NCBI GenBank assembly: GCA_019695305.1
Contig: JAIBAG010000001.1
Coordinates: forward strand, 18,774-82,773
Direction of reading: 5' to 3'
From: a bacterium
GTDB lineage: Bacteria > UBA10199 > JAIBAG01
DNA length: 64,000 nt
Notes under the pieces: generated by a model
The model's input: the letters and a program-made list of their open reading frames with translations, nothing else
Told to the model about the DNA's origin: nothing
Database searches by the model: none
Program-made: the position numbers and the translations under genes
Shown here: positions 6,253 through 61,488 of the stretch, piece by piece
Layout of the letters: each line of letters starts with the position of its first letter
Position numbering within the stretch: position 1 is the stretch's first letter

Positions 6253-7167
6253 TTATGTTCGTAAGGGCACACGGCCGTGTGCCCCTACAAGACAATGTTG
6301 CAAACAATTTTCTAAATTTGGATATTGAAACTGAAACCCGACTTTTGTTAACACGTGCGGATATACACGCGTGCTACCCAATAATAAATTTTGAGCCATC
6401 TCGCCCAACGCTAGTTTTAAAGCAAAGCCTGGTACAGGTAAAACTGTTGGTCGCTTTAAAACCTTACCGAGCGTTGCGGTAAATTCTTTATTAGTCACAG
6501 GCTGTGGAGAAACCAAATTTACCGGACCTGTTATTTCTTTTTGCACAATAAATTGAAACGAATTTATCCAATCGTCCAAATCAATCCAGCTCATATATTG
6601 CTGGCCGCTCCCCACAACACCACCTGCCCCCATTTTAAACGGCAAGTACATTTTAGATAACGCACCACCTTTAAGACTCAACACAATACCCGTGCGTAAA
6701 TAAGTGATAGGAACATTTTTTAAATGCTTAGTTTCATTTTCCCAGGCTACGCACACTTCTGGCAAAAAACCTGTGCCAGGTTCTGATTTTTCATCCAGCT
6801 TTTCATCACCACGCAACCCATAATAACCAATGGCCGAAGCTTGAAGATAATGTGCCGGTTTATTTTTAACTTTATTAAGAGCACCGCACAAAAGACGGGT
6901 AGATAAAATGCGGCTATCAATAATTTTCTTTTTTTGTTTATCGGTCCAGCGACCCGCGGCAATATTTTCACCGGAGAGATGAATAACAACATCGAAATTC
7001 TCAAGACTTTTTGGATCTAAAACTTGTTTTTCAATATCCCAAAAAATTTCGTTTTTATTTTTCGGCTGATGACGAACTAATTTATAAATTTGATCGTCAG
7101 GAAATGACTGGCTAATAGCCTGACCAATTAATCCCGAAGCACCTGAAATGAGAATTCGTCTCCCCAT
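6253..7167 (-). CDS. TIGR01777 family epimerase/oxidoreductase (YfcH-like, SDR fold with a DUF1731 C-terminus)
   Basis: N-terminal MGRRILISGASGLIGQ Rossmann motif. Length and C-terminal region fit YfcH. The start is taken at the MGRR ATG at 7165-7167. Confidence 0.7.
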   Translation of the reverse strand: MGRRILISGASGLIGQAISQSFPDDQIYKLVRHQPKNKNEIFWDIEKQVLDPKSLENFDVVIHLSGENIAAGRWTDKQKKKIIDSRILSTRLLCGALNKVKNKPAHYLQASAIGYYGLRGDEKLDEKSEPGTGFLPEVCVAWENETKHLKNVPITYLRTGIVLSLKGGALSKMYLPFKMGAGGVVGSGQQYMSWIDLDDWINSFQFIVQKEITGPVNLVSPQPVTNKEFTATLGKVLKRPTVLPVPGFALKLALGEMAQNLLLGSTRVYPHVLTKVGFQFQYPNLENCLQHCLVGAHGRVPLRT

Positions 7168-7190: not shown

Positions 7191-7349
7191 GTAATCTTTG
7201 AATACTTTTTTATTTTTTTGTAAATATGCGTCTCACCAACAAGCCCTCACCCTGCCATCCAAAAGCCCATCTTCACAGAACTTGTGAGGGCGTCATCTAA
7301 TAGACAGACTTCAGATTTACAAAAAAATAAAAAAGTATTCAAAGATTAC
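7191..7349. repeat. Nested-hairpin element, copy 1: 35-bp perfect terminal inverted repeats around a conserved core
   Basis: 7191-7225 (GTAATCTTTGAATACTTTTTTATTTTTTTGTAAAT) is the exact reverse complement of 7315-7349. The core carries an inner hairpin GCCCTCAC...GTGAGGGC and the motif GTCATCTAATAGACAG, which also occurs at 14350-14366. Confidence 0.75.
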
Positions 7350-8913: not shown

Positions 8914-9116
8914 ATATTAGATCTCCTGTGTATGCCGTATGTAGGAAAAAACCCCAAAATGGTCCACTTTTTTTTAAAACTATCCATTTTTTATTTGACG
9001 TAAACCCCAAATCTTAATATCCACCCTGTTCTGTATCCTATATTGGATATAATCTCTCCTCCGATGGTTTGGAAGATGGATTGGGCATATTGCCCGTATT
9101 ATTTAATGGAGTATCT

Positions 9117-9332
9117 ATGAAAACACGCGGTCGCGTAAAATGGTTTAACGATTCTAAAGGTTTTGGTTTTATCGAGCAGGACAATGGCCAGGATGTATTT
9201 GTTCATTATTCAGCCATTGGTGGTGACGGTTATAAATCCCTCCAAGAAGGTCAGGAAGTTGAGTTTGAACTTCAAACTGGTGCTAAGGGCCCTATGGCTC
9301 AAAACGTAACCAAAGTTGAAGCTAACGCTTAA
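9117..9332 (+). CDS. Cold-shock protein, CspA family
   Basis: KGFGFI and [11 protein letters not shown] motifs. ATG at 9117 with a GGAG Shine-Dalgarno 7 nt upstream. The 5' UTR is long. Confidence 0.9.
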
Positions 9333-9401
9333 TCTTTTAAACGTTTCTTAAAAATTGAGTTTAAAATTCCCGCTCTATAAGCGGCATGGTTTTTTGCGGC
9401 C

Positions 9402-14121: not shown

Positions 14122-14253
14122 GGGCGTCTATTTTTACGAGTGAAAATTGATCAATTTTTATAGAAATTTATGCCCCAAAAGTCAATTGTGAAAGAGAGGT
14201 TTTTAACTTTATTTTCAACTCTTTTTCTCCTCTTAAACACCCAAAATCAGAAG

Positions 14254-14405
14254 GACTGGGTTGTATTTAAAAATTTGAGAAAACGTGTGGCCAACCTTAT
14301 AAGCCCTCACTCCACCACCCAAAAGACTCGTTTCCCAGCAATGGTGAGGGCGTCATCTAATAGACAGCCTCCACGTTTTCTCAAATTTTTAAATACAGCC
14401 CAGTC
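14254..14405. repeat. Nested-hairpin element, copy 2: same conserved core as 7191..7349 but with different ~35-bp terminal inverted repeats
   Basis: 14254-14290 is the near-perfect reverse complement of 14371-14405. The core AAGCCCTCAC...GGTGAGGGCGTCATCTAATAGACAG matches copy 1, while the outer arms differ in sequence and still pair. Confidence 0.7.
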
Positions 14406-14664
14406 CAATGCACTGCGTCAACTGAACAAAAGTGTTCAAACTGGCAAATTCGCATGTTTTCTGCATTTGCGGGCGTTAAAAAAATACATGGCCCGCATTA
14501 TTAATCTTGACTTTGGTTTGCCGTTCGCTATCCTTTTCAAACTTCAACATTTTTCTTCGTGCAAAAATTTTTTCCCACGAAGATTACAGGGCTTCTTGCA
14601 TAACGCTTAAGCCTAACCGGGCAATACGTTATACAAAAAGACCAATACCTTAAGGAGGTAACAA

Positions 14665-30273: not shown

Positions 30274-30488
30274 TAATATGAAAAAATCTCGTCTTTATAG
30301 CGACGAGAAAATATCAGATGCAAGGCGCCTGAGGAGACCCGACTGAGGCGTATCGTGAATACGCCGCAGGGAGTGGTCGACGAAGGCAACGCGGCCACGA
30401 AGTGGTCCCCTTGGGACAGATGATGTTTTATCGTCGCTATAAAGTCTTAATCCCGTGTTCCTCCTCGGAACACTTTATTACCCTAACG

Positions 30489-30526
30489 CAAGCCCCCCGG
30501 ATGGTCCGGGGGGCTTGTAATTTCTT
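30489..30526 (+). terminator. Rho-independent terminator lying ~215 nt downstream of the fliC stop
   Basis: 12-bp GC-rich stem CAAGCCCCCCGG/CCGGGGGGCTTG with loop ATGGT, followed by TAATTTCTT. Confidence 0.65.
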
Positions 30527-42867: not shown

Positions 42868-43907
42868 TGTAAATTTTCTACAATCACATCGTGCGCTTTA
42901 GGCCTGAATTTTTTAATAGCCTCGTTTATTCGTGTGGGATGAATGCGGTTGGTAAGTAAAATAACAGAAAAATCTTTTTTACGGTCCCACCAAAAAGAAG
43001 TGCCGGTATAACCCAGATGACCCACCGACAATTCTGAAAAATATTTGCCGGATGACGAAGGAAAGCTGGGCGTATCAAAACCAAGAGTAAAGCCACCACT
43101 AGCTGGCTTTGTTAAAAAAGTTTTAAGGACTGCCGGATTAACAAAAGTACTCTCGCCTTTTTCAACTTTCCTTAACTCTATGAGATACCCCGCTACATCC
43201 CGCGCTGTGCCAAACAGGCCGGCATGGCCGGCAACACCATTAAGCAGATAACAACGCTCATCCATCGCTTCGCCCAATAAAATTTTATTGCGCAACGGAC
43301 AGAGCTCGGTGGCCACAAAATGACTTTCTGTTTTATCAAGCGGCTTACTGATTGGATTATAAAATAGATTTAGCTTCAGGGGATTGGCAATTTCATTTTT
43401 AAATAATACATCAAGGGGTAATGAAAATATTTTTTCTAAAATAAAACCCAATAATAAATAACCCAAATCACTGTACACCACTTTAGTCCCCACGGGGTTT
43501 TCTAAAGACTCGGAAACAATTTTATCCGTCATCCACTGTTTTATGTCAGCTGGATGCGATTCTTTCTCATATTCTTTATAAGCAGCAAGACCGGAAGAGT
43601 GATTGAGCAAATGAGCTAATGTTATTTGTGGATTTGCTTTCGAAAAATATTTGGAAAGAGGATCATGAAGGGAACAAAGTTTTCGTTCTACCGCCTTCAT
43701 GAAGAGTGTCGCGGTCGCAATGGGCTTTGTAAGAGAGGCAATATCAAAAAATAAATGGGGCGTTAAGGCACGCTCTATAGGTTCTTTTTGCGCCAAGCCA
43801 TACACTTTTTCAAAAACAATCTTCTGATGACTCAACACAAGAACACTGGCCCCGGGAAAAACGCCATCGGCTAAAGCTTGTTCGAATAAAGAATCAATTT
43901 TATTCAA
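42861..43907 (-). CDS. Serine hydrolase of the beta-lactamase (class C / esterase) family
   Basis: S-x-x-K active site (FDIASLTKP) and the YxN-like region. The start is uncertain. The TTG at 43905-43907 lies just after the ldcA stop, while the longer GTG-initiated ORF (to 43967) would overlap ldcA by 67 bp. Confidence 0.65.
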   Translation of the reverse strand: MNKIDSLFEQALADGVFPGASVLVLSHQKIVFEKVYGLAQKEPIERALTPHLFFDIASLTKPIATATLFMKAVERKLCSLHDPLSKYFSKANPQITLAHLLNHSSGLAAYKEYEKESHPADIKQWMTDKIVSESLENPVGTKVVYSDLGYLLLGFILEKIFSLPLDVLFKNEIANPLKLNLFYNPISKPLDKTESHFVATELCPLRNKILLGEAMDERCYLLNGVAGHAGLFGTARDVAGYLIELRKVEKGESTFVNPAVLKTFLTKPASGGFTLGFDTPSFPSSSGKYFSELSVGHLGYTGTSFWWDRKKDFSVILLTNRIHPTRINEAIKKFRPKAHDVIVENLHQ

Positions 43908-44805
43908 GAGGACTTTCCAGATACTTGAGGGTTTTATTTGTGGCGTTAAGCTCCACCTTGGCTCCAAAAGCCAGTGTCACTTTTTGCGCCCCATGGCCTG
44001 CCGGAAAATTATATAGCACCGGGCCTTTAAAATCTTTTAAAACATCCTTGATGGTTTCAATATAATGCTCGTTCTCACCACCATTTACAAAATTTCCAAA
44101 TATAATTCCCTTGGCCTTTTTAAGTTTTCCAGCCAATTTGAGCTGAGTCAGCATGCGGTCTACCGCGTAGGGTTTTTCGTTAATATCTTCAAAAAATAAT
44201 ATTTTGTTCGTCGTATCAAGCTCATAAGGAGTGGCCAATGTAGAAATGATGAGAGATAGACATCCCCCAGTCAGCATGCCCTGCGCCCTACCCTTTTTTA
44301 AGCACACAGTTTCGTCAAACTGGTAAAACGGTTTTTGCACAATTCCGGTAAGTGTTTGAAAAAGTGTTTTTTCGGTTAAAAGATCCACTGGTGGCGTTAA
44401 GTCTTTAGCTACTACCGGCCCGTAAAAAGTAATCCATTTCTTTTTTTGCGTGAGATAATTTAAAAGTGGCGTGATATCGCTATAGCCCATCACAATTTTA
44501 GGATGGCTGGGCTTCATCATCTTATCAACAAAGGGCAAAATACGCATCATCCCGTAACCACCACGGGCAAAAAACAGCGCGTTTATTTTTTTATTTGATA
44601 AAAGAGAAAGCAGCTCTTTAGCACGTCTGGCATCGTTACCAGCCAGATAATTTTTCTTTTCAAAGATATCGTCTTTGTAAAAAACTTTATAATCTTTAGA
44701 CCGAAGATGCTCCACAGCGGCTAAAAATTTATCTTTTTCAAATGGACTCGCCGAGGCCGCAATACCGATAATGTCACCATCTCTTAGTTGTTTTGCTTTT
44801 TTCAT
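43900..44805 (-). CDS. ldcA: LD-carboxypeptidase (muramoyltetrapeptide carboxypeptidase, peptidase S66)
   Basis: S66 family motifs including the catalytic Ser context GYSDITPL and the C-terminal HG. 301 aa. Confidence 0.82.
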   Translation of the reverse strand: MKKAKQLRDGDIIGIAASASPFEKDKFLAAVEHLRSKDYKVFYKDDIFEKKNYLAGNDARRAKELLSLLSNKKINALFFARGGYGMMRILPFVDKMMKPSHPKIVMGYSDITPLLNYLTQKKKWITFYGPVVAKDLTPPVDLLTEKTLFQTLTGIVQKPFYQFDETVCLKKGRAQGMLTGGCLSLIISTLATPYELDTTNKILFFEDINEKPYAVDRMLTQLKLAGKLKKAKGIIFGNFVNGGENEHYIETIKDVLKDFKGPVLYNFPAGHGAQKVTLAFGAKVELNATNKTLKYLESPLE

Positions 44806-44839
44806 CTTCTTATAAAAAACTCTCTAAACACTTTCTTGA

Positions 44840-45012
44840 AATTACTTAAAAATCCCTGGAGGGACCTTTCTTATATTGAGACCCTCCGTCGTCAATTGGA
44901 ACAACCGGGATACAATAGACCCAATTGGCGGTGGCGGAGCGTCGCTCGGGTCGGCCCGAGCGTAAGCGTGTCTCAATATAAGAAAGGTTCTGGAAGGGAT
45001 TTTTAAGTAATT
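44840..45012. repeat. 173-bp long-stem palindromic element: 43-bp arms with a 6-bp central mismatch, flanking a structured 87-bp core
   Basis: 44840-44882 pairs with 44970-45012. The two 18-19 bp blocks are perfect, with GGAGGG/TCCAGA unpaired between them. The core contains sub-hairpins GCTCGGG/CCCGAGC and CAATTGG/CCAATTG. It lies in the divergent promoter region between ldcA and the E1-alpha gene. Confidence 0.7.
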
Positions 45013-45099
45013 TCTCCCACTTAACGCACCACATCAAAATCTACCTCAGAATAAAGATTTCCATAGACGGAATCAACGCCTTTCTTTTACAATTTGCAT

Positions 45100-46170
45100 A
45101 TGCCCATGCTGGATTCACAAGATCTGCATGGATTCAAACCGAGCGGGGATGCACAACAACCCCAGGAACTGGCAACACATGGTTTGATCCATTCTCTCCT
45201 CACCAAGCAAGACTTGCTGAATCTCTACCATTATCTGGTTTTAACCCGCACCCTGGAAGACAAAATTCATTACATATGCTCACACCAAAACCCCAAAAAC
45301 CCACTTATTATCGGTAAAGGTTATTTATCAACGGGACAAGAAGCGGTGTCTATTGGGGCTGCTTATACGCTGAAAGAAAACGATTGGGTGGCACAAAGCC
45401 ATCGTGATTTTGGTTGTTTGCTCATGCGCGGACTGACGGTGGATGATTTGCTCATGCAATATTTTAGTAAAGTAGATGGCCCCACCAAGGGACGCGATGC
45501 CAATGTGCACCTGGGAAACACGCAAAAAAGAATATTGGGATTTATCTCGCACATGGGTGCCATGCTTCCTGCTGCCAACGGTGTAGCCTGGGCCTCCAAA
45601 TACAAAGGCGAAAACAATGTTACACTCGCCTTTTTTGGCGATGGTGCCTCCTCACAGGGTGCTGTGCACGAAGCCATGAATTACGCAGCCGTGTTTAAAC
45701 TGCCCGTTGTTTTTATTTGCAACAATAATGGCTGGGCTATTTCTACACCCACCCATCAGCAATATGCCATTCAGGATATCTCGGCACGAGCCAGCGCTTA
45801 CGGCATGCCAGGATCAACATGCGACGGCAATAATGTGGTAGAGGTTTATAATCACCTTAAAAAAGCCGTTGATCATGCAAGAAATGGTAATGGCCCAAGT
45901 TTAGTAGAATGCAAAACCATGCGCATGGCTGGCCACGGCACACACGACCGCGCTCAATACATGCCTAAAGATCAAATAGAATATTGGAAGTCCCGCGACC
46001 CCATTTCAAATTTTGAACAAAGATTGATCAATAATGGGGTCGCGGATGATTTTTTATTTAAAAACAAAAAAGAAGAACTCGCCCAACTGGTGAATGAGGC
46101 TGTGGAACGGATTAGTCAAATGCCGGGGCCCACAGTGGATAAGCAGTTGGACGATGTATTTGCAAAATGA
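45100..46170 (+). CDS. 2-oxoacid dehydrogenase E1 component, alpha subunit (TPP-dependent; pyruvate, branched-chain or acetoin type)
   Basis: TPP-binding motif GDGASSQGAVHEAMNYAAVFKLPVVFICNNNGWAIS. 358 aa. Confidence 0.85.
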   Translation: MPMLDSQDLHGFKPSGDAQQPQELATHGLIHSLLTKQDLLNLYHYLVLTRTLEDKIHYICSHQNPKNPLIIGKGYLSTGQEAVSIGAAYTLKENDWVAQSHRDFGCLLMRGLTVDDLLMQYFSKVDGPTKGRDANVHLGNTQKRILGFISHMGAMLPAANGVAWASKYKGENNVTLAFFGDGASSQGAVHEAMNYAAVFKLPVVFICNNNGWAISTPTHQQYAIQDISARASAYGMPGSTCDGNNVVEVYNHLKKAVDHARNGNGPSLVECKTMRMAGHGTHDRAQYMPKDQIEYWKSRDPISNFEQRLINNGVADDFLFKNKKEELAQLVNEAVERISQMPGPTVDKQLDDVFAK

Positions 46171-50579: not shown

Positions 50580-50597
50580 TTTGCCAAAGCTGGCAAA
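50580..50597. promoter_or_regulatory. Palindromic candidate operator TTTGCC-N6-GGCAAA, site 1, upstream of the dinD-like gene
   Basis: TTTGCCAAAGCTGGCAAA followed by ATGATCC. A second copy with the same architecture lies 117 bp away. Confidence 0.4.
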
Positions 50598-50696
50598 ATG
50601 ATCCAAGCAACCTAAAGTAATTTTCATAGGTGTAAAAATTACTAAATAATCTTTATTTATCAATAATTTTTGATCATGCCTGGCCAAAAGCACCAT

Positions 50697-50714
50697 TTTG
50701 CCGGCATTGGCAAA
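50697..50714. promoter_or_regulatory. Palindromic candidate operator TTTGCC-N6-GGCAAA, site 2
   Basis: TTTGCCGGCATTGGCAAA followed by ATGGTAT. The extended motif TTTGCC-N5-TGGCAAAATG is shared with site 1. Confidence 0.4.
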
Positions 50715-53838: not shown

Positions 53839-53911
53839 TCCGGGCTCGTCCAACGGCAGGACATTTGACTCTGACTCAAAGAATCAAGGTTCGAATCCTT
53901 GGCCCGGATCA
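53839..53911 (+). tRNA. tRNA-Gln (anticodon CUG)
   Basis: Cloverleaf folded by hand: acceptor TCCGGGC/GCCCGGA, D-arm GTCC-AACGGCA-GGAC, anticodon arm TTTGA-CTCTGAC-TCAAA (anticodon CTG), and T-arm CAAGG-TTCGAAT-CCTTG. Confidence 0.85.
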
Positions 53912-53984: not shown

Positions 53985-54009
53985 AGGTTCGAATCCTTGG
54001 CCCGGATCA
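53985..54009 (+). repeat. 25-bp direct repeat of the tRNA-Gln 3' end (T-arm plus acceptor), 73 bp downstream of the tRNA. Candidate att-site remnant.
   Basis: AGGTTCGAATCCTTGGCCCGGATCA is identical to tRNA positions 53887-53911. No matching 5' half, so it is not a second tRNA. It lies 17 bp upstream of the rpoH-like start. Confidence 0.7.
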
Positions 54010-56654: not shown

Positions 56655-56875
56655 TGGTTGTAAGACCTAGTAACCATAAAGCCGAGCGATGCTTGTCTCT
56701 ATGGAACTAGCTCTAAAGGAAGTCCGGTGTAATTCCGGCACGGTCCCGCCGCTGTAAGCTGGGGGTCTTTTTAAGATCAACCTCTGTGCAAAGCAAGTCA
56801 CTGTCCCGAACTATCGGGGTGGGAAGACCGCACAAGAGGCCAGCAAGTCAGAATACCAGCCAATCCATTCAAAAT
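56655..56875 (+). ncRNA. Cobalamin (B12) riboswitch
   Basis: Core AAAGGAAGTCCGGTGTAATTCCGGCACGGTCCCGCCGCTGTAAG fits the consensus GGGAA..GGTG.AA.TCC..GC.G.CCCGCCACTGT. A downstream AGTCACTG...GGGAAG and a B12-box-like AGTCAGAATACCAGCC are present. A sigma-70-like TTGACA lies at 56618. The element sits in the 5' leader of the lipoprotein gene at 56993. Confidence 0.8.
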
Positions 56876-56992
56876 TATTTGGATGTGCAGTGCGAGCGAC
56901 ACTTTGTTTTGGTTCCTTCCTTTTGGAATTTTTCCCCAAGACATCGTCTGTTCTCGCTTGTTGAAAATATAAAAATTCAACAGGAGAATCCC

Positions 56993-58291
56993 ATGAAAAA
57001 ATATCTTTCTTTATTTACTATTCTATTTCTATTTGCCGCTTGTGGCAGTGTACAAAACCAAGCAACAGGCAGCATTAACGATGATGATTTAGATAACGTA
57101 TTAAGTCCGCTTGATGACCCTGATACTGATATCCCTGAGGATAGTGATGAAATTGTGTATGACGATACCTTTGTTGCTTACATGTACGGAACGGCATATG
57201 GTTCTAATGGCCAGCTTTTTCTTACTTCTACAGCAACGCTTGATACACTTTTTAACAGCGGCGTTCCTAGCTTGGGCAATGATGCCATTATCAAAGCTCA
57301 AAATAATTTGGTGTATGTTTTGCACCGTGGAGGAGCATTCGTTTCGGGCTCTACCGATAACGTGCAAATTATTGATCCGGCCAATAGCTTTGCAACGGTC
57401 AATCAATGGTCTACCGGTAACGGCACCAACCCACAGGACATCATTATTATTGATAATAAAGCCTTCATCAGCTTAGGCAATCCAGAATCCGATCCGGATA
57501 ATGTGGCCGATAATGGTAAACCCGGCGACGTAATTGTGATGAATTTAGATACTGGTAACATCGAAAATCGCATCAGCTTTTTTGATTTGTTAAATGATGA
57601 TGATTACAAAGCATCTAATGCCAACAAAATGTTGCTTATTGACGATAAAATTTATGTATTGGTTCAGGATTTAGGCGAAGGCTTTAATCCTTATGCCATT
57701 AATGCAGCAGGGCATTTAGTCACATTGGATGCCACCACCGGCGAGCGCCTGGATAGCATTACCCTGGCGGGGCGTAATCCTGTAGGGTTGGCCGTTAGTC
57801 ACGATAAAAAAACAATCTATGTTTCTTTTGGAGCTCCATTTGATGACTGGTTTACAATAAACGAATACGAAACGGATGAATTTGGCGGCTTACAAATTTT
57901 ATCGGCCGCCGATACAACGCACAGTACTTTTATTGCCGATAATAGTTTTGGAGGATATTTGGAAGGCATTGCCACCGGTAATGGTCTGTTGTACGTTACC
58001 ATTTCTCATTACAATGCTTCAAATTTTAGTTTTACCTCCAACATTTGGACCATGGATGAGACCAACACAAACGTAGAAGGTTTTTTTAACCTATTGCCTG
58101 CAGCACAAGACATTAGAACTTTTGCCATAGCGCCGGATGGTAATTTATGGGTTTCGTACCGAACCATTTTTAAAGAAACCGGCATAGCAGGTGATGCCAC
58201 AGTAGAAATTTTGGACGGCATCACCGGCGATTATACTGGCACAACATACACGCCCAGTGCGCCCGTAGTTTCTATCGCCTTTGAAAAATAG
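56993..58291 (+). CDS. Beta-propeller surface lipoprotein under a B12 riboswitch. Candidate BtuG-like cobalamin-binding protein.
   Basis: Signal peptide with lipobox LFAACGS. GGAGAA Shine-Dalgarno 6 nt upstream of the ATG. Repeated beta-strand-rich segments consistent with a 7-bladed propeller. Immediately downstream of the cobalamin riboswitch. Confidence 0.55.
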   Translation: MKKYLSLFTILFLFAACGSVQNQATGSINDDDLDNVLSPLDDPDTDIPEDSDEIVYDDTFVAYMYGTAYGSNGQLFLTSTATLDTLFNSGVPSLGNDAIIKAQNNLVYVLHRGGAFVSGSTDNVQIIDPANSFATVNQWSTGNGTNPQDIIIIDNKAFISLGNPESDPDNVADNGKPGDVIVMNLDTGNIENRISFFDLLNDDDYKASNANKMLLIDDKIYVLVQDLGEGFNPYAINAAGHLVTLDATTGERLDSITLAGRNPVGLAVSHDKKTIYVSFGAPFDDWFTINEYETDEFGGLQILSAADTTHSTFIADNSFGGYLEGIATGNGLLYVTISHYNASNFSFTSNIWTMDETNTNVEGFFNLLPAAQDIRTFAIAPDGNLWVSYRTIFKETGIAGDATVEILDGITGDYTGTTYTPSAPVVSIAFEK

Positions 58292-60948: not shown

Positions 60949-61488
60949 AAAAATTACCTCTTCATACTTAATTGACTACAAAAAGTTATCGTCATTTTTT
61001 TGAAAGAATTGCCTGATATTCATTCCTTCTTCTCACTTTCTGCATCCAAACTGTTATCACCTCCTTATCCCCAGCTGTGGAAAAGCCTGTTGATATTAAT
61101 GTATGGCAATGTAGGGCAATAAAAAGGGTCTGAAGCCCCGTATAAAAGAAAGGTTTTGGGGACTCTACCCCCTAAGCTTGCAAAAGTTCTGCTAAGAGAT
61201 TTAAAAATACAAATAATTTCAATTATTTAAATATGAAACAAAAAAGCTTTATTGGCATAAAGGTTGCTTTATTATGTTTACAAATACAGGCTAGGGAGCT
61301 TTGCTCTTTAGCCCCTTAATACCCTCCGAGCCGCTTGTAGCGAGGATTCTACAAGCGGCTCACCCCCTTTAACACATTTCAATTTAAAGACTTTCTAGAA
61401 CGTGCTCGACAAGAAAGCTTTTAGACCTTAAAAGAACCTTACAATTTTTTGCAAAATATAACGGCCTCGGGCGCGTTATAAAGTTTAT

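Follow-up and report, generated by a model that had tools for sequence, protein, structure and literature searches.

Clamped hairpins in an uncultured bacterial lineage: a 177-nt palindromic element between the divergent ldcA and E1-alpha genes

The palindrome between ldcA and E1-alpha

We analysed a 64-kb stretch of one metagenome-assembled bacterial genome, hereafter referred to as the window. In this window, two divergent genes flank a long palindrome. The first encodes the LD-carboxypeptidase LdcA (43900–44805, minus strand); its ORF is 100% identical to MBX7147501.1 and belongs to Peptidase_S66. The second encodes the E1-alpha subunit of a 2-oxoacid dehydrogenase (45094–46170, plus strand), an ORF whose orthologues carry the E1_dh domain. 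The LdcA record and that of GyrA (MBX7147469.1) derive from the same 324,107-bp contig. The gap between ldcA and E1-alpha measures 288 bp and contains a palindromic insert of 177 nt (44838–45014), which we call element A and without which the gap would be 111 bp. A distance of 32 nt separates the left arm of A from the start codon of ldcA (44805), and its right arm lies 79 nt from the earliest possible start codon of E1-alpha (45094).

The two 45-nt arms of element A (left, 44838–44882, 27% GC; right, 44970–45014) are separated by 87 nt and form an inverted repeat in which 40 of 45 positions (89%) are Watson–Crick complementary. The near-perfect arms of 43 bp that had been described in the original prediction are thus present, and extend two bases further on each side. 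All five positions that are not Watson–Crick pairs, two of which are G.T, fall in a single cluster in which GGAGGG in the left arm (44858–44863) stands opposite TCTGGA in the right arm (44989–44994), so that the central 6-nt bubble that had also been described accounts for every mismatch. One position within this bubble (44862/44990) is a normal G–C pair, and in a plus-strand RNA two G.U pairs would shrink the loop to 3x3. As five independent mismatches would rarely fall within six adjacent positions out of 45 (P ~1.6e-4), the bubble appears to be the result of one multi-base event in otherwise perfect arms. Neither a simple local inversion nor a specific template-switch copy accounted for it unambiguously, and we make no claim for either. 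Wobble pairs across the arms on the plus strand comprise four G.T and no A.C, which are too few for interpretation.

Element A is real and lies far beyond chance. An inverted-repeat scan for arms of at least 18 nt with spacers of 40–140 nt returned five loci in the window and none in 20 block-shuffles of the window. An assembly artefact was ruled out, as the flanks are distinct genes that share one neighbourhood in relatives. The palindrome also gives rise to mirror-image ORFs at 44788–45006 (plus strand) and 44846–45037 (minus strand), which had been flagged as spurious from the start and are indeed artefacts of the palindrome. ORFs of this kind that cross the elements described here are absent from the protein collection that we searched and were never annotated, and annotators should ignore them.

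The 177-nt element A is predicted to fold with a free energy of −98.4 kcal/mol on the plus strand and −87.1 kcal/mol on the minus strand (z-scores of −12 and −11, respectively), and seven G.U pairs favour the plus strand. Two GC-rich sub-hairpins had been proposed for its 87-nt centre, and the predicted folds place them on the plus strand at 44883–44937 and 44939–44967. The first, present in both the minimum-free-energy and the centroid fold, consists of a 14-bp stem (three G.U pairs on the plus strand), a 21-nt loop that contains AATAGAC and a 2-bp closing extension. The second, which folds both as RNA and as DNA, has the GC-rich stem CGCTCGGG / CCCGAGCG, a TCGG tetraloop and additional outer pairs. 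Together with the outer stem, the two sub-hairpins form a tight three-way junction in the predicted fold. The core alone folds with a z-score of −3.0 as RNA and −3.1 as DNA.

The location of element A between divergent genes could point to a DNA-level switch between their promoters, in the form of a regulatory cruciform or an inverton. The core of A contains a promoter-like site (TCGTCA-16-TACAAT) that faces E1-alpha, and its 45-bp arms might on rare occasions allow inversion, either RecA-dependent or by template switching; inversion of a spacer has been described (PMC8604942). However, promoter-like sites around A occur at chance level (3 against 0.9 ± 0.9 expected), no invertase or recombinase gene was found in the window, and two of the four elements of this design in the window do not lie between divergent genes. 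A long non-palindromic GC-rich centre makes cruciform extrusion very unfavourable, and as 87 such bases part the arms of A, a regulatory cruciform role is unlikely. We consider a switch of either form to be highly improbable.

One design at four loci

The design of element A occurs four times in the window, at 7191–7349 (element B1), 14253–14406 (B2), 30293–30444 (C) and 44838–45014 (A). The original prediction had noted a likeness in architecture between A and elements at 7191 and 14254, which our analysis bears out; element C was absent from its list and was newly found by the inverted-repeat scan. B1 has 38-nt arms, of which 37 positions are paired, around a core of 83 nt. B2 has 35-nt arms (34 paired) around an 84-nt core that is homologous to that of B1, and C has AT-rich arms of 24 nt (22 paired) around a 104-nt core of 63% GC and unrelated sequence. 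Across the four elements, GC content ranges from 0.14 to 0.34 in the arms against 0.51 to 0.63 in the cores, and A and C form the two highest intergenic GC peaks of the window. The elements measure 152–177 bp in total, with a narrow range of core lengths (83–104 nt). We group A, B1, B2 and C of this genome into one class, termed 'clamped hairpin' elements, in which a GC-rich core of 83–104 nt contains two sub-hairpins and is closed by an AT-rich, near-perfect stem of 24–45 bp.

All four elements adjoin housekeeping genes (the ldcA/2-oxoacid dehydrogenase operon, gyrA/HU, flagellin and pdxH), where they lie in untranslated or promoter regions. B1 is located within an operon and takes up the intergenic space between a pdxH-like and an epimerase-like gene, which share one strand. 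The right arm of B1 reaches with its outer 4 nt (7346–7349) into the pdxH-like gene, where it covers the last coding base and the stop codon; the encoded protein terminates exactly where the PNP_phzG_C domain model ends. As this arm overlaps a natural stop codon, there is a hint that it is host sequence rather than imported. B2 sits between the divergent gyrA and HU genes, and C has the stop codon of the flagellin gene (30273) on one side and a terminator-like GC hairpin (~30490–30525) on the other. Among the 55 ORFs of the window that were scanned against Pfam, all those with a match are ordinary chromosomal genes, and none encodes a transposase, recombinase, invertase, reverse transcriptase or HUH nuclease, or carries a RAYT or Y1 transposase domain.

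Two further inverted-repeat pairs were rejected as members of the class. One, at 57805, falls within an ORF of 501 aa and is imperfect. In the other, at 50580, the centre is AT-rich and each arm is a small palindrome in its own right. These small palindromes, TTTGCCA-n4/5-TGGCAAA at 50580–50600 and 50694–50714, are spaced ~115 bp apart within an intergenic region of 402 bp that adjoins a Bro-N domain gene, and may be an operator pair. At 61330–61365, upstream of a CNNM/CBS-domain gene, we observed a naked 13-bp GC-rich hairpin (GAGCCGCTTGTAG ... CTACAAGCGGCTC) that has neither a T tract nor long arms.

Local alignment of the cores against shuffled sequences showed that only those of B1 and B2 are homologous, which leaves three unrelated core sequences (A, B and C) among the four elements. 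The AATAGAC motif that A had been said to share with the two B elements is a chance match, as the alignments of the A core to the B and C cores score inside the shuffle distribution. Element A occurs as a single copy in the 64 kb examined, and no arm of any element has a second copy there. The B1 and B2 cores form the only real dispersed repeat of the window, with a local alignment score of 73 against a shuffle mean of 14. Without gaps, 56 of 71 positions are identical, including a perfect run of 24 nt (permutation P = 0.013). This invariant block stands beside a variable loop sequence, and the helix that closes the B core carries one change on both sides, from U–A to G–C.

The arms of B1 and B2 behave differently from their cores. 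The right arm begins at the same offset from the 24-nt block in both elements. In register, 16 of 35 arm positions match; the outer part is at the random level, and the inner 14 nt match at nine positions (P ~0.005). As the residual similarity is only marginally significant (P ~0.01), the arms could be unrelated rather than fast-diverged. Within each copy, in contrast, the arms are 97% complementary (37/38 in B1, 34/35 in B2). A neutrally decaying MITE loses arm-to-arm complementarity as fast as copy-to-copy similarity, and a recently transposed MITE retains its terminal repeats; the B1/B2 pair fits neither. Their stems are either continually homogenised or rebuilt locally, or else their pairing is under strong selection.

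Absence from relatives and the origin of the elements

We compared the ldcA/E1-alpha locus with that of relatives. The nearest homologues of LdcA are at most 62% identical, and those with a name are labelled as metagenome-assembled genomes of Deltaproteobacteria. Genes for LdcA and E1-alpha share one neighbourhood in four distant relatives and are adjacent in two of them: they abut with 0 bp in between in L001 (GCA_030647375.1, JAUSJF010000030.1), and their junction measures 85 bp in L002. In L007 (GCA_016207765.1, JACQOY010000193.1), an HTH-cupin gene lies between ldcA and E1-alpha, and in L008 they are separated by ~6 kb of other genes. A comparison with orthologous regions had been suggested along with the original prediction, and it showed that element A, or any homologue of its core, is missing from all four relatives' loci. 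Elements of this architecture were also not found in 43 kb of the relatives' DNA, which comes from distant and more GC-rich genomes. By parsimony over these distant relatives, the absence of A from the junction is most simply explained by an insertion in this lineage.

The relatives' loci contain palindromes of other kinds. In L007, a different long imperfect palindrome (1963–2061) lies just upstream of E1-alpha and next to the HTH-cupin regulator gene; it consists of arrays in which the heptamer GACCAAA or its complement is repeated. In L001, a palindrome of G- and C-tracts (6536–6636) has arms of 37–39 nt that are 79–84% complementary; it falls within a span called as a beta-lactamase-family gene and may be an insertion into coding sequence.

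Searches of sequence collections and inspection of the element ends gave the following picture. A 21-mer from the A core had no exact match in genome, viral or metagenome collections, and a block from the B core had none in the genome (20-mer) and viral (18-mer) collections, none of which includes the source genome. Four metagenome matches to the B core 18-mer were rejected as chance, as neither the upstream stem nor the arms accompany any of them. A blastn search with all four elements against phage and plasmid records also gave no match. With a boundary slack of ±3 nt (49 boundary combinations), the best flanking direct repeats measured 4 nt for A, 2 nt for B1, 2 nt for B2 and 5 nt for C. 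As these lengths are within chance and inconsistent with each other, the elements show no consistent target-site duplication. By inspection of the sequence, the element ends lack integron attC R/L boxes, the surroundings of the 6-nt bubble of A show no dif-like Xer site, and there is no TTAC-type IS200/IS605 target logic.

These results bear on the explanation that A, B1, B2 and C are classical MITEs, that is, different transposase-mobilised families with many identical copies elsewhere in the 324-kb contig or the genome. The 152–177 bp size, the terminal inverted repeats, the strictly intergenic location and the absence from orthologous sites in relatives all agree with this, and a MITE family of a few dozen copies per genome would usually show only once in 64 kb. 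If the genome does hold many identical copies, the elements would be ordinary MITEs. However, a consistent target-site duplication is absent from all four, the window encodes no transposase, and the A and B cores have no relatives in the genome, metagenome or viral collections, nor do the elements in phage or plasmid records. Moreover, B1 and B2 share their core and not their terminal repeats, although a MITE family conserves these more than any other part, and arms that have diverged between copies should be decayed within a copy as well, whereas those of B1 and B2 are still paired. We therefore regard the classical MITE as an unlikely origin. The same evidence bears on the suggestion in the original prediction that A could be a non-autonomous mobile element, which is partly supported. 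The absence of A from four relatives and the fourfold occurrence of the design agree with it, whereas the testable marks of a MITE, a target-site duplication and conserved arms in B1 and B2, were lacking. Of the three readings offered there (a regulatory cruciform, an sRNA gene or a non-autonomous mobile element), this one nevertheless comes closest.

If the arms had been built in place, a target duplication would not be expected, and the elements indeed show none. In this case, a core that arrived or pre-existed at the locus would have been joined by an inverted copy of its 24–45 nt flank through a fold-back template switch, so that one of the arms would represent old host DNA, of which its partner would be a copy. 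No arm sequence recurs in the window, the arms resemble the local intergenic DNA in being AT-rich, their length varies from 24 to 45 nt, and the pdxH-like stop codon in the outer 4 nt of the B1 right arm would be expected of host sequence. The mechanism itself is documented (PMC8794818, PMC13100816). On the other hand, the arms of B1 and B2 have the same offset from the 24-nt block, similar lengths (38 and 35 nt) and a weak inner similarity, which suggests that the arms were already present in a common ancestor. No copy of a core without arms was found in the window or in the relatives' loci, and typical intergenic lengths would be restored by removal of the whole element rather than of one arm and the core. 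Arms that were built in place thus seem distinctly unlikely.

The folded cores could also be functional structured RNAs, either an sRNA or a leader that regulates the E1-alpha operon or ldcA in cis. The long stem would then serve to present the folded core or to set it free, as a clamp or as a site of RNase III processing. All cores fold better than shuffled sequences, with z-scores from −1.6 to −3.0, and they are GC-rich islands in AT-rich intergenic DNA, which is typical of structured RNAs. The 24-nt invariant block of the B core beside its variable loop and the single U–A to G–C change on both sides of the closing helix would fit selection on an RNA, as would the seven G.U pairs that favour the plus strand in A and the greater stability of the transcribed strand at B1 and C, the two loci where this comparison is informative. 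However, the strand preference of the folds follows G+U composition, as shown by the shuffle means, the three core types are unrelated, the A and B cores have no exact-block match outside this genome, and perfect duplexes of 35–45 bp are unusual for functional bacterial RNAs.

Searches for RNA families and expression signals likewise argue against dedicated RNA genes. Rfam 15 gave no gathering-level match at any of the four elements, and with E-values up to 5 it gave only microRNA-precursor style matches far below the threshold, which are generic for long hairpins. ARAGORN found no tRNA or tmRNA at the elements. No intrinsic terminator was detected in the three regions scanned, around A, B1 and B2; two of the four elements are flanked by divergent genes, a setting in which no terminator would be expected. 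Promoter-like sites occur at chance frequency around A, B1 and B2, with no consistent promoter among them, and promoters picked by eye in the arms (e.g., TTGAGA-17-TATAAG in B2) were dropped because they are not common to B1. A structured RNA as the main explanation is therefore rather improbable. A dedicated RNA function of the cores is possible, and none of the features in its favour is decisive.

The same RNA searches yielded observations elsewhere in the window. Gathering-level Rfam matches identified a cspA thermoregulator at 8963–9349 and a cobalamin riboswitch at 56670–56878, both on the plus strand; the former implies a small cold-shock gene in the gap at 8914–9401, below the ORF cut-off used. 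The sole ARAGORN find in the window is a tRNA-Gln at 53839. Its 3' 25 nt (AGGTTCGAATCCTTGGCCCGGATCA, 53887–53911) are repeated exactly 98 nt downstream, at 53985–54009, with GC-rich filler between the copies. This arrangement looks like the scar of an att-type integration, or else like a tRNA gene that was duplicated in part.

Proposed mechanism and known systems

We propose that element A is a non-coding, non-autonomous and lineage-specific palindromic insertion, whose stem is maintained by template switching and which acts mainly via the flanking RNA. We assign this reading a probability of about 0.45. Arm-to-arm template switching is the most likely maintenance mechanism, which we infer from the pattern of near-perfect pairing in arms that differ between loci. 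Template switching has been reported to create perfect stems in a single event, to repair pairing, and to homogenise and expand arms (PMC8794818, PMC8604942, PMC13100816). During replication, a switch from one arm to the other would copy a change in one arm onto its partner, and would occasionally yield a multi-base patch such as the 6-nt bubble of A. The stem would then be held by concerted evolution at the DNA level, perhaps together with selection for pairing, and the unit itself may have spread in the past by a non-classical route.

The main present consequence of these elements would be at the RNA level. As A lies so close to the start codons on both sides, at least one of the ldcA and E1-alpha mRNAs probably begins inside A or reads through it. 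The proximity of A to the ldcA start, the position of C between a stop codon and a terminator-like hairpin, and the intra-operon location of B1 likewise point to a likely transcription of the elements within the mRNAs of their neighbours. Long RNA duplexes are substrates of RNase III. A read-through transcript of A would carry a duplex of 45 bp (24–45 bp across the elements) that could be cut by this enzyme, and cutting would change how the flanking message is processed and how stable it is, an effect known from Correia and ERIC elements. The four elements thus likely shape mRNA processing in this uncultured lineage.

A more radical version holds that the heritable unit is the small GC-rich branched core, and that the long stem is rewritten from arm to arm or rebuilt from the local flank. 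We regard this as a speculation with little probability. Either route would place homologous cores within non-homologous but perfectly paired arms, and rebuilding at each site would amount to an inverted rather than a direct target duplication; such elements would be of a previously undescribed bacterial kind. Should the pattern of B1 and B2 hold genome-wide, it would offer a clear-cut natural case in which a long hairpin stem undergoes concerted evolution, and could point to an insertion route that builds inverted flanking repeats.

Several known systems share features with these elements, and we file element A under the known kind of bacterial palindromic intergenic repeats. MITEs resemble A in size, terminal inverted repeats, lack of coding capacity, intergenic location and absence from orthologous sites, and differ in the points set out above, including a parent insertion sequence or transposase, of which there is none in the window. 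REPINs and BIMEs are also dispersed intergenic palindromes that form long hairpins and are maintained as pairs. In REPINs the arms (REP sequences) are conserved and the spacer varies, whereas B1 and B2 show the reverse, and the window holds no RAYT-type gene. REP sequences are moreover GC-rich, 20–40 nt long and present in high copy number; the arms of the elements described here are AT-rich, 24–45 nt long and unrepeated in the window.

The T-shaped terminal hairpins of parvoviruses, such as the AAV ITR, consist of a stem of ~40 bp that closes two short GC-rich hairpins in a three-way junction. Their likeness to A is one of shape alone. Parvovirus termini belong to linear ssDNA genomes and carry Rep-binding sites, whereas A is internal to a chromosome, has no Rep or HUH gene nearby and gave no viral match.

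The inverted repeats that result from template switching (quasipalindrome correction) are similar to the clamped hairpins in their near-perfect, locus-specific arms and in changes that affect multiple bases at once instead of scattered mismatches. However, they reflect a mutational process and not an element family, and template switching alone does not explain the recurrent GC-rich core of 83–104 nt or the duplicated B core. One study of template switching searched spacers of up to 70 bp only (PMC13100816), which are shorter than the 83–104 nt centres found here.

The closest parallel is provided by the Correia repeat enclosed elements (CREE) and by ERIC/IRU elements. CREE have terminal repeats that are conserved over hundreds of copies, with a TA duplication on their flanks. 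The elements described here are unlike CREE in this respect, as their arms differ between copies with homologous cores, and they show no duplication and no sequence similarity to CREE. In Neisseria, CREE consist of an intergenic inverted repeat around a core, and their hairpin can supply promoters, bind IHF, and be bound or cut by RNase III (PMC2649163). Like element A, both CREE and ERIC/IRU are intergenic and have an inverted repeat around a core; these known elements measure 100–170 bp and are co-transcribed with their neighbours. By analogy, a Correia-type hairpin repeat offers the best model of the way in which element A probably works.
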